From Candidatus Yanofskybacteria bacterium CG10_big_fil_rev_8_21_14_0_10_36_16 (GTDB lineage: Bacteria > Patescibacteriota > Minisyncoccia > 2-02-FULL-40-12 > IGHO2-01-FULL-4-A), in assembly GCA_002794035.1 (NCBI GenBank), contig PCXQ01000006.1, positions 24,533 through 88,532 on the forward strand: a stretch of 64,000 bases of DNA, written 5' to 3'. The notes under the pieces are model-generated. The model searched no databases. It had not been told where the DNA came from and saw only the letters and a list, made by a program, of their open reading frames with translations. Shown here piece by piece: positions 49,598 to 55,490 of the stretch. Both the position numbers and the translations under genes were made by a program. Each line of letters starts with the position of its first letter. Position 1 is the first letter of the stretch.

Positions 49598-51088
49598 ATG
49601 CCAAACAAATTTTATATTACAACTGCTATAGATTATGTTAATTCAAAGCCTCATATTGGACATGCTTTGGAGAAGCTTCAAGCTGATGTTCTGGCTCGTT
49701 ATCATCGCTTAATCGGCGATGAAGTTTTCTTTTTGACCGGTACAGATGAGCATGGCGCAAAAATAGTAAAGGCAGCAGATAAAGCAGGTAAAACTCCGCG
49801 AGAATTCACAGATGAAATATCTGCCAGTTTTGTTGAACTTACAAAAAAATTAAACATTTCAAATGATGATTTTATCCGGACTACTGATCAAGAAAAACAT
49901 TGGCCCGGAGTTTATAAAATATGGAATGCTATCAAAGAAAACGAGGATTTATACAAAGACACTTATGAAGGTCTTTATTGCGTAGGACACGAAGCTTTTA
50001 TGAAAAAATCTGACCTAAAAGATGGCGAATGCCCCGATCACAAAACTAAACCCGAAAAAATAAAAGAGGAAAATTACTTTTTTAAACTATCAAAATACAA
50101 AAAAGACCTTGAGAAAGCATACCGAGATGGAGTTGTTAAAATATTTCCTGAAACAAGAAAAAATGAAGTACTTTCAATGCTTAAAGATTCAGAAGATATC
50201 AGTTTTTCAAGACCAAGCAAAGATTTAAAGTGGGGCATTCCCGTGCCAAACGACAAGGATCATACAATATATGTTTGGTCGGATGCCTTAACAAACTACC
50301 TTTCTGCTATAGGGTATGGAAGAAATGATGACTGGCTAAAATGGTGGCCAGCCAACACCCATGTAATAGGCAAGGATATTCTTCGTTTTCATGCTATCAT
50401 TTGGCCAGCAATGCTAATGTCAGCTGGCATTGATTTGCCAAAATCAATAGCTGTCCACGGTTTTATTACGGTAGAAGGAGAAAAAATGTCAAAAACAATC
50501 GGGAATGTTATAAGTCCCATAGATTTAATTGGAAAGCACGGCGTAGACCCAATCAGATATTTTCTTTTGCGGGAAATTCCCTCAACTCAAGACGGTGATT
50601 TTTCACAATCCAAACTTGAAGAAAGATATAATGGAGATCTTGCAAATAACTTGGGAAATCTTGTCAGCCGTACAGCTAAGTTAATAGAAACACGCCTGAG
50701 TGGAGAGTTGGATTTTAAAGATCATTTTGTTGATATTGACGCTCATAAAAAAGTGCAAGAAACATCTCAAAAATATGCAGTTGCACTCAATGATTTCAGA
50801 TTACATGACGCCCTGAGCGCTGTTTGGGAATTGCTTAGTTATGCCAATTCATATATCGATACTCGCAAACCTTGGGACAAAGATGCAGATGCCCAAAATA
50901 TTATGACAACTTTAACAACTGTTCTTGGCATCATATTGAATTCCGCATGGTTTTTAAAACCATTTATACCAGACACAGCAGATAAGATATTCAAGATGTT
51001 TGGAACAACAGAAGACCACACAAAATGGGTCGGCAATAAATTCGAAATTAATAAATTGGAACCTTTGTTTCCTAGAATAAAATCTTAA
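49598..51088 (+). CDS. metG: Methionine--tRNA ligase
   Basis: HIGH motif PHIGHAL; KMSKS motif KMSKTIGN. Confidence 0.9.
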   Translation: MPNKFYITTAIDYVNSKPHIGHALEKLQADVLARYHRLIGDEVFFLTGTDEHGAKIVKAADKAGKTPREFTDEISASFVELTKKLNISNDDFIRTTDQEKHWPGVYKIWNAIKENEDLYKDTYEGLYCVGHEAFMKKSDLKDGECPDHKTKPEKIKEENYFFKLSKYKKDLEKAYRDGVVKIFPETRKNEVLSMLKDSEDISFSRPSKDLKWGIPVPNDKDHTIYVWSDALTNYLSAIGYGRNDDWLKWWPANTHVIGKDILRFHAIIWPAMLMSAGIDLPKSIAVHGFITVEGEKMSKTIGNVISPIDLIGKHGVDPIRYFLLREIPSTQDGDFSQSKLEERYNGDLANNLGNLVSRTAKLIETRLSGELDFKDHFVDIDAHKKVQETSQKYAVALNDFRLHDALSAVWELLSYANSYIDTRKPWDKDADAQNIMTTLTTVLGIILNSAWFLKPFIPDTADKIFKMFGTTEDHTKWVGNKFEINKLEPLFPRIKS

Positions 51089-51099
51089 CTAAAAAATAT

Positions 51100-51846
51100 A
51101 TGATTATTGATTCACACTGCCATCCGCAGTTCCCACAATACAACAAAGATCGCGACGAGGTCATAAAACGTGCTTTAGATAATAAAGTAGAGATGATTTG
51201 TGTCGGTACTGATTTGGAAATGTCCAAAAAGGCTATTGAGCTTTCGGAAAAACACAAAGGAATATGGGCATCTGTAGGTGTTCACCCAACAGACGTAGAT
51301 GGAGGTATAAATGTTGAACCATTTGAAGAATTGTTGAGAAATAAAAAAGTTGTTGCACTTGGAGAAATAGGCCTAGATTATTACCATATTAAAGATGAAG
51401 CACTAAGAGAACACCAAAGGATAACTCTTATGCAATTCCTAGACATGAATGAAAAACATGGATTACCCCTAATAATACATTGCCGAGAAGCATATGAAGA
51501 CATGCTTAAAATTGTTGATTCTAGATTTAGGGGAGTAATACATTCTTGGACTGCCAACTGGGAAACAGCAAAGAAATTCGTTGATTTGGGTTTTTATATT
51601 GGCTTTAATGGTATCATCACCTTCACAGATCAATATAATGATACTGTTATAAATACCCCTCTTGAAAAAATCCTGATTGAAACCGATGCACCGTTTCTAG
51701 CACCAGTACCAAATAGAGGAAAAAGGAATGAGCCCTTGTGGGTTAAGCATGTAGCTGAAAAAATATCTGAACTTAAAAAGATAAGCATTGAAGAAGTCGG
51801 AAAACAAACAAAAGAAAATACAAAAAAATTGTTTAGAATAAAATGA
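51100..51846 (+). CDS. tatD: TatD-family metal-dependent hydrolase
   Basis: MIIDSHCHPQF...; GEIGLDYY; conserved His/Asp positions. Confidence 0.85.
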   Translation: MIIDSHCHPQFPQYNKDRDEVIKRALDNKVEMICVGTDLEMSKKAIELSEKHKGIWASVGVHPTDVDGGINVEPFEELLRNKKVVALGEIGLDYYHIKDEALREHQRITLMQFLDMNEKHGLPLIIHCREAYEDMLKIVDSRFRGVIHSWTANWETAKKFVDLGFYIGFNGIITFTDQYNDTVINTPLEKILIETDAPFLAPVPNRGKRNEPLWVKHVAEKISELKKISIEEVGKQTKENTKKLFRIK

Positions 51847-54767
51847 AATACAATCCTTCCAAAATAGAATCAAAATGGCAACGCAAATGGTCTAAAGACA
51901 AACTTTATATTGCGCGTGACACAAAAAAAGATAAAGAGAATTATTATCTTTTAACAGAATTCCCTTATCCTTCTGGCAACTTACACATAGGACACTGGTA
52001 TGCCTTTTCTGTGCCAGATATTTTTGGACGTTATGTGAGAATGAGAGGCAAAAACGTAATGTACCCCATAGGATTTGATTCATTTGGATTACCAGCCGAA
52101 AACGCCGCTATTAAAAGAGACCTTCAACCTGAAGATTGGACAAATCAAAATATTAAATACATGACTGGACAGCTTGAATCAATGGGGGCAAGTTTTGATT
52201 GGTCGCGTAAAGTAATAACATCTCACCCCGATTATTACAAATGGACTCAGTGGTTGTTTATACAATTTTATAAAAATGGGCTTGTGCGCAGAGATAACAC
52301 ATTAGTTAACTGGTGCCCAAGTTGTAAAACAGTTCTTGCAAATGAACAAGTTGTTGAGTCTAAGAAAAAAGAAGGAGTTGTAAATGTTTGTGAAAGATGT
52401 GGTACAGAAGTTCAACAAAGAGAAATGATCCAATGGATGCTTAAAACCACAAAATATGCAAAAGAATTAACAGACAGTCTAGAAAATGTTGACTGGCCAG
52501 AAGCTACGAAATTGGCTCAAAAAAATTGGATTGGCAAATCAGAAGGAACGGAAATAGAATTCAAAATAAAACACGCCTCAGTTGCTAAATCCAAGGAAAA
52601 CAAACAAATATTTAAGATAAAAGTCTTTACAACAAGACCAGATACTTTGTTTGGGGCAACTTATTTAGTATTGTCACCGGATCATAAATTAATCCAAAAC
52701 AACAATTTAGAGATACTAAACAAGGAAGAGGTTAATAAATATATTAAAAAATCAAAACAAAAAACAGAGCAACAAATAAAGGAAAGCAGAACCAAAACAG
52801 GAGTAGAACTAAAAGGAATCAAGGCGGTCAACCCGGCAAACAATGAAGAGATCCCGGTTTGGATTGCAGATTATGTAGTAAGTCACTACGGAACAGGAGC
52901 CATTATGGCAGTACCTGCCCACGATGAACGTGATTTTGAATTTGCAGTAAAACAAGGACTGCCCATAAGGGAAGTTGTTGTTCCTAATATAATCGATAAG
53001 CGTAATCCGCCAAAAGAGGGTAAAAAATCTAAAGAAAGAAAAAATGTACACGCCATAGTAAAGGACCCTAATACAGGACAATATTTGGCTTTGAAATGGA
53101 CAAAATTTGACTGGATAACATTCCCGATGGGCGGGATAGAGGAAGGCGAAGATGTTGTGACTGCAGCAAAACGAGAAGTAAAAGAAGAAACGGGTTTTTG
53201 CAATTTAAAATTAATTAAAGTTCTTGAAGGTCAAGCAAGGGCTGAGTATTTTGCTGCCCACAAAGACGAAAATAGAGTTTCATTTACTACAGCTGTTCTT
53301 TTCGAGTTAATTGACAACACACAATCTGACATTAGCAAAGAAGAAAAAGAAATGCATGAAGTTGTATGGATTGATAAAAACAAGTTAAACTATCAGGGCA
53401 TGACCCATGCAGAAATTGATCTTTGGGCACAAAAAATGCACTCTGAAAACCCGGCTTATACAAAGCATGGGATTTTAATAAACTCAGGAAAATTTAATGG
53501 CATGGATTCTGAAAAAGCCAAGTGGGAAATTACAAAATATGTAAAAGGCGAAAAGCAAACCAATTATAAACTACATGATTGGATAATTTCTCGTCAAAGA
53601 TATTGGGGAGTGCCAATACCAATGATTTATTGTCCAAACTGTGGATATAAGCCTGTAAAAGAAAAAGACCTACCCCTAAAACTGCCAAGATTGAATGATT
53701 TTAAACCAACAGATGATGGCAAATCACCCTTAGCCAAAGTTGCCAAATGGGTAAAAACAACATGCCCTCATTGTGGCAATGAAGCGGAAAGAGAAACAGA
53801 CACCATGGATACCTTTGTAGATTCTTCGTGGTATTTTTTGCGCTATTCTGATCCACAAAACAAAACAAAACCATTTGATGGTTCCAAACTTAAAAAATGG
53901 CTACCAGTTAATATGTACATTGGCGGAGCTGAACACAACACAATGCACCTATTGTATTCAAGGTTCTTTACCAAAGCAATGCACGAATTAAAATTAATTG
54001 ATTTTGATGAGCCTTTTGCCTCGAGACGAAACCATGGAATAATATTGGGGCCCGATAGCCAAAAAATGTCTAAATCAAGAGGAAATGTTATTGATCCCGA
54101 TGATTTAGTAAAACAGTTTGGAGCTGACACAGTAAGAATATATCTAGCCTTTATGGGGCCATATGACCAAGGAGGTCCTTGGAGCCCTGGGGCAATAAAT
54201 GGAGTTTATAGATTTTTAAACAGAGTATGGAACCTTTTCGAGACTAAACACAAAATCCAAAATATAAAATCCAAGACAAATTCCAAAACCCAAAGCAATA
54301 AAAAATTGGAACAATTACTGCATAAAACCATTAAAAAAGTAGGAGAAGATATCGAGGAAATGAGATTCAACACTGCTGTTAGTGAGTTAATGAAACTTCT
54401 TAATGAAATTGAGGCTTCAGAAAACCAATTAACAAATACGGATTATGAATTATTTGCCAAAATCATTGCTCCTTTTGCCCCTCATCTTGCAGATGAAATT
54501 TGGCATGAATTGTTAGGCAGAAAAAAATCTATCCATCTTGAAAAATGGCCAAAATATAATTCAAACCTTGTTAAAGAACATTCGGTTGAATTTATAATAC
54601 AGATCAATGGAAAACTTAGAGATACGGTAGAATTGCCCATAGATTCCCCAGAAGAAACAGTGAAACAATTTGCACTAAAAAGCGAAAATGTAAGGAAACA
54701 CATGGGAAACCAACAATACAAAAAAGCCATATTTGTGCCGAATAAACTAATAAATTTTGTATTGTAA
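51843..54767 (+). CDS. leuS: Leucine--tRNA ligase carrying an inserted NUDIX hydrolase domain (974 aa)
   Basis: HIGH: PYPSGNLHIGHW; KMSKS: KMSKSRGNVIDP; editing-domain motifs. Inserted block about nt 52990-53460 has a perfect Nudix box GGIEEGEDVVTAAKREVKEETGF. Confidence 0.9.
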   Translation: MKYNPSKIESKWQRKWSKDKLYIARDTKKDKENYYLLTEFPYPSGNLHIGHWYAFSVPDIFGRYVRMRGKNVMYPIGFDSFGLPAENAAIKRDLQPEDWTNQNIKYMTGQLESMGASFDWSRKVITSHPDYYKWTQWLFIQFYKNGLVRRDNTLVNWCPSCKTVLANEQVVESKKKEGVVNVCERCGTEVQQREMIQWMLKTTKYAKELTDSLENVDWPEATKLAQKNWIGKSEGTEIEFKIKHASVAKSKENKQIFKIKVFTTRPDTLFGATYLVLSPDHKLIQNNNLEILNKEEVNKYIKKSKQKTEQQIKESRTKTGVELKGIKAVNPANNEEIPVWIADYVVSHYGTGAIMAVPAHDERDFEFAVKQGLPIREVVVPNIIDKRNPPKEGKKSKERKNVHAIVKDPNTGQYLALKWTKFDWITFPMGGIEEGEDVVTAAKREVKEETGFCNLKLIKVLEGQARAEYFAAHKDENRVSFTTAVLFELIDNTQSDISKEEKEMHEVVWIDKNKLNYQGMTHAEIDLWAQKMHSENPAYTKHGILINSGKFNGMDSEKAKWEITKYVKGEKQTNYKLHDWIISRQRYWGVPIPMIYCPNCGYKPVKEKDLPLKLPRLNDFKPTDDGKSPLAKVAKWVKTTCPHCGNEAERETDTMDTFVDSSWYFLRYSDPQNKTKPFDGSKLKKWLPVNMYIGGAEHNTMHLLYSRFFTKAMHELKLIDFDEPFASRRNHGIILGPDSQKMSKSRGNVIDPDDLVKQFGADTVRIYLAFMGPYDQGGPWSPGAINGVYRFLNRVWNLFETKHKIQNIKSKTNSKTQSNKKLEQLLHKTIKKVGEDIEEMRFNTAVSELMKLLNEIEASENQLTNTDYELFAKIIAPFAPHLADEIWHELLGRKKSIHLEKWPKYNSNLVKEHSVEFIIQINGKLRDTVELPIDSPEETVKQFALKSENVRKHMGNQQYKKAIFVPNKLINFVL

Positions 54768-54938: not shown

Positions 54939-55490
54939 ATGAAGGAAACTCTAAAAAATCTTGATAACTTTGAACAAATTGTGGTTCAATACCAGCGCGA
55001 TATAATAAATTTTCATTACCGTTTTACCGGTAATCGTTTTGAAGCTGAAGATTTAGCTCAAGAAACATTTATTAAAGCGTACAAGAAATTGCACACACTT
55101 AAGGAACATGACAAGTTCAAAAGCTGGCTTTTTCATATTGCCCGAAATACAGCCGTTGATTTCTTCCGTAAAAACAAAAACAGGGCTATACCTGTTGATC
55201 ACGAGATATTAGCCAGCTTAGCGAGTATGTCTGATTCACCGAATTATGAAAAGCTTGTCGAACAAAACAACATAAGCAAGCAAATAAAGAATTGCGTTAA
55301 TTTATTAAAAGAAGAAGAAAAATTACTAATAAAACTTCTTTATTACCATGATTTCTCATACGCCCAAATATCTAAAATGCTTAACATCAACCAAAACACT
55401 CTTAAAAGCCGTTTGCGCCGAGCAAGAATGTCTTTGTTTGATATTATAAAAAGCAAAGGTTTGATGGAGGAGCTAGCTCTATCAATATAA
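54939..55490 (+). CDS. ECF-type sigma-70 family RNA polymerase sigma factor
   Basis: Region 2 (EDLAQETFIKAYKKL...WLFHIARNTAVDFFRK) and region 4 (FSYAQISKMLNINQNTLKSRLRRAR). Confidence 0.75.
   Translation: MKETLKNLDNFEQIVVQYQRDIINFHYRFTGNRFEAEDLAQETFIKAYKKLHTLKEHDKFKSWLFHIARNTAVDFFRKNKNRAIPVDHEILASLASMSDSPNYEKLVEQNNISKQIKNCVNLLKEEEKLLIKLLYYHDFSYAQISKMLNINQNTLKSRLRRARMSLFDIIKSKGLMEELALSI

Follow-up and report, generated by a model that had tools for sequence, protein, structure and literature searches.

A small Nudix subfamily nested in the CP1 editing domain of leucyl-tRNA synthetases from CPR bacteria

Few enzymes have been studied as thoroughly as the aminoacyl-tRNA synthetases, and the catalytic modules that they carry are thought to be a well-known set. 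The CP1 domain, the INS/YbaK domain of ProRS, AlaX and the GNAT-containing IleRS (a curated exception family, NCBIfam NF040702) all embody the same concept of an extra catalytic domain grafted on a synthetase, although these modules are aminoacyl-tRNA deacylases or acetyltransferases, whereas the domain described here is of the pyrophosphohydrolase (Nudix) type. The established substrates of Nudix hydrolases all contain a diphosphate linkage, and several classes of these enzymes can be told apart by residues downstream of the Nudix box: a conserved X-loop Tyr about 17 residues downstream marks Ap(n)A hydrolases, a conserved X-loop Pro marks ADP-ribose pyrophosphatases and the sequence SQPWPFPxS marks NADH pyrophosphatases (PMC5389931). 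Synthetases make Ap3-5N, which are degraded by Nudix enzymes of the RppH/NUDT2/MutT1 type (PMC7705103). In NadM-Nudix, a bifunctional NMN adenylyltransferase / ADP-ribose pyrophosphatase of an unrelated pathway, the Nudix domain is fused at a terminus and is not nested. The words 'synthetase' and 'tRNA' do not occur in the 2017 survey of the Nudix clan (PMC5389931).

The window analysed here, a 64,000-nucleotide stretch of Candidatus Yanofskybacteria DNA, contains leuS (51843..54767; all features given here are on the + strand), the start codon of which shares an ATGA overlap with the stop codon of a tatD-like gene upstream. The 974-aa product is 100% identical to a protein from a Ca. Yanofskybacteria metagenome-assembled genome and scores 977.2 bits against the bacterial leucyl-tRNA synthetase equivalog TIGR00396 (curated cutoff 548.4). 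The class I signatures HIGH (aa 48-51; 51984..51995), which belongs to the catalytic site, and KMSKS (aa 741-745; 54063..54077) are both present, together with an anticodon-binding domain (aa 820-939; 54300..54659; Pfam PF08264, 85.6 bits). The CP1 editing domain is split into two parts. The first (aa 227-379; 52521..52979) is delimited by Pfam PF13603, positions 1-146 of 185 of which match aa 227-385, and by an alignment with Tth LeuRS that runs up to Tth residue 362; the second (aa 537-575; 53451..53567), which carries the G-I-L-x-N-S-G segment, resumes at Tth residue 375. The editing site is 99-100% conserved across 120 homologues. T263, T264 and T268 of the Thr-rich motif TTRPDT (aa 263-268; 52629..52646) are invariant in all 120, as are G350, G352, H360, R363 and D364 of the stretch that holds the GTG loop and the AHDERD motif with its universally conserved editing Asp (aa 350-364; 52890..52934); D361 is found in 119. 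In the second part, G543 and S548 are invariant among the aligned homologues. The LeuRS of the window is complete and apparently functional, with HIGH, KMSKS and every CP1 editing motif intact.

Between the two CP1 parts lies a 157-aa Nudix domain (aa 380-536; 52980..53450) that takes the place of a 3-54-aa surface loop. An earlier note on this DNA had recognised a Nudix domain in the protein and proposed a profile scan as a check; the scan confirms it, with PF00293 matching aa 399-516 at 51.7 bits (gathering threshold 21.1, E = 1.2e-13). The note had placed the insert after the end of the editing domain, which is wrong: it is inside CP1, with both halves of that domain flanking it. The Nudix box, GGIEEGEDVVTAAKREVKEETGF (aa 430-452; 53130..53198), is a perfect fit to GX5EX7REUXEEXGU, as the note had read it. 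In an alignment of 106 sequences, which takes in one (P0117) whose insert is a different domain, conservation of the catalytic residues is 92-100%: G430 is present in 105 sequences, G431 in 104, E436 in 98, R444 in 100, E445 in 105, E448 in 101, E449 in 105 and G451 in 106. Further downstream is the X-loop YFAAHKDENR (aa 469-478; 53247..53276), which is likely to be the substrate-specificity loop. Its first position, 17 residues past the box, is Tyr in 74 and Phe in 29 of the 106 sequences, and H473 (93), K474 (102), N477 (101) and R478 (100) are also widely kept. The insert has the alpha/beta/alpha sandwich fold of Nudix proteins, a family-specific N-terminal segment (P-x3-D-x2-NPP-x2-GK) and the same composition as the remainder of leuS. 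It is a complete, autonomously folding Nudix domain swapped in for one CP1 surface loop. Its metal-binding and catalytic residues are under strong purifying selection, and the domain looks catalytically competent.

A comparison with LeuRS from relatives, also suggested in the earlier note, covered the 120 best homologues. In 105 of them, all from CPR/Patescibacteria, the insert is in frame, at the identical site and of unvarying length (about 157 aa). A scan of species genomes made with the 12 closest sequences, and thus limited to the closest subgroup, found it in ultra-small bacteria, in the representative genomes of at least 140 species; among these 140 confirmed matches, the insert lies inside the LeuRS ORF in 80 of the 80 loci that were kept. 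Nudix-nested LeuRS is the common form among the closest relatives of the window protein, not a rare one, and most LeuRS from CPR bacteria of the Parcubacteria type have a member of the subfamily in their CP1 loop. The subfamily itself is small, with only 551 matches at E ≤ 1e-3 among 1.84 billion representatives, and LeuRS or LeuRS fragments make up about two thirds of the best 150 of these 551. The earlier note had taken the fusion to be an undescribed LeuS architecture. That view holds for the searchable literature, in which full-text searches found no paper describing a Nudix-bearing LeuRS or other synthetase, and in which we did not find this synthetase-associated enzyme family described; it does not hold for the databases, where this common CPR form already carries precomputed Pfam labels.

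By sequence and by fold, the nearest relatives of the insert are RppH/NudH and the Ap(n)A hydrolases, and it is a member of neither group. Among characterised families, RppH comes closest by sequence and second by fold. Of all family models, the NCBIfam RppH/NudH ones (PRK00714) are matched by the most subfamily members (40 and 37 of 46; best E-value 4.1e-10), none of them reported near a cutoff, and the best score, 33 bits, compares with cutoffs of 116-118 for E. coli RppH (NudH/YgdP; 118) and the bacterial 'invasion' Nudix Ap(n)A hydrolases. Identity to these proteins is just 17-20%, and, unlike them, the insert has its own N-terminal NPP-x2-GK and an H-K-x-x-N-R X-loop. RppH is moreover an independent RNA-decay factor, whereas the subfamily described here is nested in a synthetase or encoded beside one. 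The asymmetric Ap4A/Ap6A hydrolases (lupin 1f3y/1jkn, human NUDT2 and Chlamydia CT771) rank high in both profile-sequence and fold searches, as do T. thermophilus Ndx1 and M. tuberculosis Rv2985 of the same group. In the insert, an aromatic residue occupies the X-loop position, about 17 residues past the box, at which Ap(n)A hydrolases have their marker Tyr; the insert subfamily falls outside these hydrolases at the level of family sequence models, and has Phe at this position in 27% of sequences. The window protein itself has Tyr there. The Pro of ADP-ribose pyrophosphatases, expected about 15-16 residues after the Nudix box, is replaced by Ala and Glu at positions 467 and 468, predominantly so in the homologues as well, which separates the insert from the subfamily to which NadM-Nudix belongs. 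SQPWPFPxS is absent from aa 452-536. RNA-decapping Nudix proteins, AvrM14 and Dcp2, are also among the profile matches. A single-sequence search of the PDB with the insert gave one weak match, and the profile search was more informative. The Enterococcus faecalis MutT/Nudix family protein in PDB 2azw (17% identity) is free-standing, and its title names no function, so it offers no functional lead.

The association of this subfamily with synthetases extends beyond the single nested copy. Some LeuRS hold two to three copies of the domain. In other genomes the closest free-standing members are neighbours of leuS: in all four contigs examined, the gene for one of them (P0135, P0271, P0273 or P0274) directly precedes leuS in the same orientation, and in three of these four the neighbouring LeuRS (806-828 aa) is without the insert. 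That the domain is nested in some genomes and a separate leuS-adjacent gene in others is Rosetta-stone evidence for a tie between Nudix enzyme and LeuRS. In one locus (L081), 578 nt separate the free-standing Nudix gene from leuS, and an Rfam search of this gap found no T-box or other leader. More distant free-standing members (P0275, P0277 and P0156) do not adjoin leuS, so the adjacency is limited to the clade closest to the LeuRS inserts. The same subfamily is also nested in ProRS of likely DPANN archaea, in five clusters from independent contigs, where it sits between the anticodon-binding and C-terminal domains of an archaeal-type ProRS that has no Pfam editing-domain match. Some copies have altered boxes. 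The copies that precede CP1 are of types A and B, of which 'type B' carries E->Q and R->A changes, and in the ProRS copies the first half of the box is divergent; even so, these variants have all three Glu of the E-x2-EE core. Generic Nudix genes found in the same neighbourhoods (near loci L081, L086 and L088) were considered as further members and rejected, with 16-26 bits on the subfamily model as against 100-215 for members; because they coexist with it, the subfamily member is not simply the only Nudix enzyme of the cell. In short, this Nudix subfamily is small and distinct and has genetic ties to synthetases: it is nested in LeuRS in one or more copies, encoded beside leuS and nested in ProRS. 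Its recruitment by class I (LeuRS) and class II (ProRS) enzymes, which are unrelated hosts, was independent.

Our best guess for the function of the insert, a tentative one that may well prove wrong, is that it clears Ap4A-type by-products in cis. The domain would act as a pyrophosphohydrolase that depends on Mg2+ and is of the kind represented by RppH/NudH and the Ap(n)A hydrolases. Enzyme-bound aminoacyl-adenylate that reacts with ATP or another nucleotide, and not with tRNA, would yield adenylylated polyphosphates, and the Nudix domain would destroy these by-products (Ap4A/Ap4N, Ap3N and p4A) on the same polypeptide. The host organisms scavenge nucleotides, and the reaction would give ATP and AMP back to them; it would also keep alarmone levels down and restrict the Np4 capping of RNA. 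The main gains from placing the domain on CP1 would be co-expression in stoichiometric amounts and closeness to where the by-products arise. The idea, which the earlier note had also raised, is compatible with the evidence: the nearest neighbours of the subfamily are RppH/NudH and the Ap(n)A hydrolases, and it is tied to two unrelated synthetases. A second proposal of the note was pre-transfer proofreading, in which the insert would hydrolyse misactivated aminoacyl-adenylates such as norvalyl- or isoleucyl-AMP. The domain is indeed embedded in an editing domain, misactivation is a known problem of both hosts (norvaline and Ile for LeuRS, Ala and Cys for ProRS), and the host ProRS has no Pfam match to an editing domain. 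However, an aminoacyl-adenylate has only one phosphate, joined to the acyl group as a mixed anhydride, the known hydrolases of this compound are HIT-family proteins, and the canonical post-transfer editing site shows 100% conservation, so there is no editing deficit in need of compensation. Such a reaction is chemically unlikely, a weaker idea than Ap4A clearance, and we regard proofreading as very improbable.

The substrate might instead be the 5' end of an RNA held or met by the synthetase, such as a tRNA precursor or a capped RNA, from which an RppH-like activity would remove a 5' triphosphate or diphosphate, or an Np4, NAD or similar cap. We consider this unlikely. In its favour, RppH ranks first by sequence and decapping enzymes are among the profile matches, both host synthetases bind tRNA, CP1, into which the domain is inserted, deals with the acceptor end of the tRNA, and the conserved basic residues R399, K474 and R478 could contact an RNA backbone. 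Against it, RNase P cleavage already leaves mature tRNA with a 5' monophosphate, these organisms are not known to make leaderless or capped tRNAs, the scores are far below the RppH cutoffs, and there is no obvious reason why such an activity should be tied only to LeuRS and ProRS. It is somewhat less likely still that the insert is a housekeeping Nudix enzyme (for nucleotide-pool sanitation, ADP-ribose or another NDP-X, for example) that in streamlined genomes became fused to a gene both essential and highly expressed, with co-expression as its only benefit and no mechanistic coupling to aminoacylation. Sequence alone assigns no substrate, and the CP1 region of CPR LeuRS hosts several unrelated domains, which makes it a permissive insertion hot spot; but the subfamily is small and almost exclusively synthetase-associated, was recruited independently by LeuRS and ProRS, keeps its place beside leuS when it is a separate gene, is duplicated within LeuRS and coexists with generic Nudix genes. 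A non-catalytic role, as a nucleotide sensor (of Ap4A or (p)ppGpp, for instance) or as an appendage, structural or tRNA-binding, through which LeuRS is modulated, would have precedents in non-enzymatic Nudix domains (PMC5389931) and in CFIm25, which binds Ap4A (PMC7705103), and some copies have altered boxes. This is improbable: the CP1-loop copies, that of the window included, keep the full box, with E445, E448 and E449 at 95-99%, and even the variant copies retain E-x2-EE, the pattern expected of catalysis rather than of binding alone. Finally, because the source is a metagenome-assembled genome, a chimeric contig could have spliced a Nudix gene into leuS, as the earlier note had cautioned. 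This is effectively refuted by the in-frame insert at the same site in those 105 homologues and all 80 kept loci, from many independent projects, by the matching composition of insert and host gene and by the precise flanking of the insert by the two CP1 halves.

A conserved pyrophosphohydrolase nested in an editing domain would be a new piece of synthetase biology. If the insert degrades Ap4A-type by-products, the producer and the destroyer of an alarmone would be physically coupled, of which we know of no earlier case, and the in vivo Ap4A output of a synthetase would gain a direct experimental handle. If RNA ends are the substrate, tRNA charging would be linked to RNA 5'-end metabolism. Either reading gives a testable prediction on an easily expressed protein. 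It is possible, although clearly less likely than not, that the subfamily constitutes an accessory enzyme dedicated to synthetases and not recognised before, which adds to synthesis and CP1 editing a third LeuRS activity (destruction of adenylate-derived polyphosphates or RNA-end processing), was recruited independently by class I CPR and class II likely-DPANN synthetases, and was amplified to as many as three copies in CPR LeuRS alongside other CP1 hydrolase inserts. The CP1 domain of CPR LeuRS is in any case flagged as a hot spot for gaining extra enzymes.

Other domains are found in this region. An NTase-like domain occupies the same CP1 loop in one CPR LeuRS, and an alpha/beta-hydrolase or a DUF559 endonuclease-like domain occurs further upstream in the CP1 region of others. 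In a neighbour-joining tree of the LeuRS core, the 14 insert-less LeuRS and the one with the NTase-like domain mostly grouped together but were not strictly monophyletic, their last common ancestor spanning 34 leaves. Loss of the leucine-specific domain was considered as a cause of the insertion and rejected, since this segment is about 165 aa long with or without the insert. Pairwise distances of the LeuRS core and the Nudix insert gave a flat or negative correlation (r = -0.56 relative to the query), which we rejected as an uninformative test of co-inheritance because the 120 sequences had been chosen on total score within a narrow band, forcing a negative relation. A nearest-neighbour test was mildly concordant: when the 105 sequences were ordered by domain, the nearest neighbour by core had a median rank of 10.5.

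The leuS gene (51843–54767, forward strand) encodes a leucyl-tRNA synthetase (LeuRS) of 974 aa. The protein scores 977 bits against TIGR00396, the bacterial LeuRS equivalog (cutoff 548), is 100% identical to an annotated leucine--tRNA ligase from a Candidatus Yanofskybacteria MAG (CPR/Patescibacteria), and is a bona fide bacterial LeuRS. Pfam detects the class I catalytic core and the anticodon-binding domain, with the HIGH and KMSKS motifs at aa 48 and aa 741. In CP1, the editing domain, T263, T264 and T268 of the Thr-rich motif TTRPDT are invariant (120/120 homologues), the GTG loop of the editing site is present, and in the AHDERD motif D364 is invariant (120/120) and D361 nearly so (119/120). 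Neither the synthetic nor the editing machinery is disrupted. The leucine-specific domain is missing: residues 580–636 of T. thermophilus (Tth) LeuRS have no counterpart, and four residues (aa 737–740, 54051–54062) bridge the site. Because the segment at this site is of the same length (~165 aa) in relatives with and without the Nudix insert analysed here, those without it also appear to lack the leucine-specific domain.

Alignment to Tth LeuRS (PDB 1h3n) pairs query aa 2–379 with Tth 3–362 and resumes at aa 537–736 with Tth 375–579, so that aa 380–536 (157 aa; nt 52980–53450, forward strand) replace a 12-residue Tth loop. The profile scan proposed in the earlier note bears out its assignment of a Nudix domain to this region: NUDIX (PF00293) matches aa 399–516 at 51.7 bits (E=1.2e-13; gathering score 21.1), and the Nudix box GGIEEGEDVVTAAKREVKEETGF (53130–53198, forward strand) is a perfect GX5EX7REUXEEXGU, the only such box across the six frames of the window. 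That note had placed a block of ~150 aa after the editing domain and ahead of the segment GILINSGKFNG. The block is there, but its position has to be corrected, because the replaced loop lies inside CP1, which in Tth LeuRS spans about residues 224–417, and because the editing-domain profile PF13603 is split into two stretches, the first of which breaks off at profile position 146 (profile 1–146 of 185 at aa 227–385). The Nudix domain is nested inside CP1, and with GILINSGKFNG CP1 resumes.

The insert folded alone (157 aa, alignment of 46 sequences) is predicted with a pLDDT of 95.9 and a pTM of 0.89; the order of its secondary-structure elements is that of the Nudix fold, and Foldseek concurs. 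A construct of CP1 plus the Nudix domain (aa 222–580) is predicted with a pLDDT of 85.4 and a pTM of 0.77, with values of 87–97 in the Nudix part and 76–87 at the two junctions. The model is compatible with, but does not prove, a reasonably fixed arrangement of the two domains. On every point that could be tested, the insert behaves as a member of the Nudix superfamily.

We assessed the distribution of the insert in the 120 best LeuRS homologues, a sample chosen by similarity to the query (44–64% identical in the best local alignment, apart from the window's own protein at 100%) and drawn from many assemblies and projects. An insert of 151–164 aa, mostly 157, occupies exactly the same site in 105 of the 120; another 14 have only a loop of 3–54 aa there, and one, P0117, carries a different domain in the same CP1 loop. 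When one genome per GTDB species was scanned by pattern, a close relative turned up in 140 genomes; in all 80 loci kept the domain lies within the LeuRS ORF, which contains one copy in 76 loci and two in the other four. Organism names among the bearers include Paceibacterota and Wolfe-, Wildermuth-, Giovannoni-, Kaiser-, Moran-, Kerfeld-, Yonath- and Tayloriibacteria. An assembly chimera, raised earlier as a possible refutation, is contradicted by this recurrence at one site across assemblies and projects and by the GC and GC3 of the insert, which equal those of the remaining leuS gene. The insert is neither an artefact nor rare. Across 106 aligned inserts, P0117 included, the box residues are conserved at G430 (105), G431 (104), E436 (98), R444 (100), E445 (105), E448 (101), E449 (105) and G451 (106), and R399, W424, H473, K474, N477, R478, L489 and W509 are conserved family-specific positions outside the box. 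The insert is a complete Nudix fold with catalytic residues under purifying selection.

CP1 of CPR LeuRS clearly tolerates insertions and is a hot spot for them. In P0117, the loop equivalent to 52980–53450 holds an insert of ~164 aa that is unrelated to Nudix and nucleotidyltransferase-like (aa 380–495, PF10706, aminoglycoside-2''-adenylyltransferase, 30.8 bits), so the loop accepts varied nucleotide-handling domains. Three LeuRS that also bear the Nudix insert have an alpha/beta (Ser) hydrolase (PF06821, PF12697, PF00561) between the CP1 hinge/start and the Thr-rich motif (P0043 aa 242–348, P0059 aa 651–753, P0125 aa 437–538), which could be an editing-related esterase; P0059 (1558 aa) combines it with three Nudix domains. 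In P0030, another Nudix-bearing LeuRS, a DUF559/REase_MTES_1575 endonuclease-like domain (aa 292–395, PF04480, 124 bits) precedes the Thr-rich region of CP1 and might be a mobile-element remnant; P0089 has the same precomputed Pfam labels.

Around the insert, a small Nudix subfamily with links to synthetases can be defined. When the insert was searched with full HMMER against 1.84 billion representative proteins, only 551 matched at E<=1e-3, of which 195 reached E<=1e-10; of the top 150, roughly two thirds are LeuRS, whole or fragmentary. Some LeuRS have two or three copies, with one or two ahead of the Thr-rich region of CP1 in addition to one in the CP1 loop; P0121, P0123, P0050, P0052 and P0059 have three copies, P0124, P0125, P0047, P0065 and others also have extra copies before the Thr-rich region, and P0041 has tandem copies inside the CP1 loop. 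In most multi-copy LeuRS the second of the pre-CP1 copies carries a variant box, 'type B', GG-x-E-x-G-Q-T-x-EE-x-A-x-A-E-x2-EETGY, whose E-x2-EE core retains its three Glu; Gln and Ala (or Met, Gln, Lys) usually take the places of the first Glu and the Arg, both changing together. Type-B proteins also occur free-standing (for example P0235 and P0261). In two of the species-genome loci, additional ~285-aa stop-to-stop frames 3' of leuS (L003, start 6811; L038, start 7001) match the subfamily model weakly in their C-terminal half (42–50 bits) and might represent a remote paralogue whose N-terminal domain is unassigned.

The subfamily also has free-standing members, 156–170 aa long, which begin with Met and contain the N-terminal NPP-x2-GK segment. 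Genes of the clade nearest the LeuRS inserts (51–58% identity) immediately precede leuS, on its strand, in 4/4 contigs examined: with a 1-nt gap in P0135, whose 951-aa LeuRS has an internal Nudix domain too, and, beside LeuRS without the insert, with a 1-nt overlap in P0271 (806 aa), a 578-nt gap in P0273 (807 aa) and one small ORF intervening in P0274 (828 aa). Nudix and leuS, which are neighbouring genes in some genomes and a single fused gene in others, form a classical Rosetta-stone pattern. None of the more distant free-standing members adjoins leuS in the contigs examined, and Nudix genes of generic type in these neighbourhoods reach only 16–26 bits against the subfamily model, versus 100–215 bits for members. 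The 578-nt gap (L081 10493–11070) matches no Rfam family at E<=0.1 and holds no T-box or other known leader.

The subfamily also occurs in prolyl-tRNA synthetase (ProRS). P0238 has the order tRNA-synt_2b, HGTP_anticodon, NUDIX, ProRS-C_1, shared by five ProRS clusters (61–100% identity, 641–674 aa) on independent contigs. Their nearest insert-less relatives are named Nanoarchaeota or Woesearchaeota, and the contigs are likely to be from DPANN archaea. In the genes at L088 3720–5744 and L089 5593–7524 the Nudix domain follows the anticodon-binding domain and precedes the C-terminal one. Several ProRS copies have a box that deviates in its first half. ProRS at L088 has a generic Nudix gene close upstream and a MazG gene downstream, and a tRNA_bind (PF01588) gene directly precedes that at L089. 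The subfamily is genetically coupled to two unrelated synthetases.

The multiple copies, free-standing members, leuS adjacency and ProRS occurrence all go beyond the earlier note, which had considered the fusion not to be a described LeuS architecture. Within the literature searched this holds: full-text searches found no relevant report of a LeuRS–Nudix or other aminoacyl-tRNA synthetase–Nudix combination, and a comprehensive 2017 survey of the Nudix clan contains neither 'synthetase' nor 'tRNA' (PMC5389931). The architecture is nevertheless not categorically new, because it is already visible in public databases, where insert-bearing proteins are named 'leucine--tRNA ligase' or 'class I tRNA ligase family protein' and carry precomputed Pfam labels. 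Judged by sequence, these proteins would be synthetases with an extra nested catalytic module, of a Nudix type that is, as far as we found, unreported in synthetases.

Sequence and fold comparisons of the insert all point, if weakly, to one substrate class. Most subfamily members match the RppH families of NCBIfam (40 and 37 of 46), but the best score, 33 bits, falls short of the curated equivalog cutoffs (116–118), and the domain does not belong to those families. A profile search of PDB sequences ranked 2azw first, lupin Ap4A hydrolase second and the decapping effector AvrM14 third. The marker of dinucleoside polyphosphate (Ap(n)A) hydrolases sits in the X-loop at position 17 after the box (PMC5389931); at this position, where the X-loop starts, the inserts have an aromatic residue, Tyr in 74/106 but Phe in 29/106. 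The insert has neither the Pro that marks ADP-ribose pyrophosphatases nor the NADH pyrophosphatase motif SQPWPFPxS. Synthetases are the classical source of Ap3-5N, formed when a nucleotide attacks the enzyme-bound aminoacyl-adenylate, and the classical asymmetric Ap4A hydrolases are Nudix enzymes of the RppH/NudH, NUDT2 and MutT1 type (PMC7705103).

The best-supported mechanism, which we put forward tentatively, is that the insert would act in cis as an RppH/NudH-like pyrophosphohydrolase, clearing adenylylated polyphosphate by-products and so recycling ATP and AMP. We favour it because class I LeuRS and class II ProRS have adenylate chemistry and tRNA binding in common. Hosts of this type are, as far as known, nucleotide scavengers. 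The main rival, action on RNA 5' ends or caps, is rather unlikely. Such a permissive CP1 would suit a housekeeping Nudix enzyme that gains only from co-expression, but the association with synthetases is repeated and specific, and we give this reading a small chance. A non-catalytic role fits poorly with the conserved Glu residues and is improbable. Least credible is hydrolysis of aminoacyl-AMP, which is chemically unlikely because that compound has no diphosphate bond and the canonical CP1 editing site is intact.

In the window, metG (methionyl-tRNA synthetase, judging from sequence), leuS and the tatD-like gene between them are closely packed on one strand (49598–54767). The leuS ATG overlaps the stop of the tatD-like gene that follows metG (ATGA, 51843–51846), which suggests a single operon with two synthetase genes. 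A 183-aa ORF 3' of leuS (54939–55490) resembles a sigma-70/ECF-type factor by appearance only. The gene after leuS in the P0135 and P0273 contigs carries Sigma70_r4/HARE-HTH (L081 13666–14721), and a sigma-type gene in this place may be conserved synteny.
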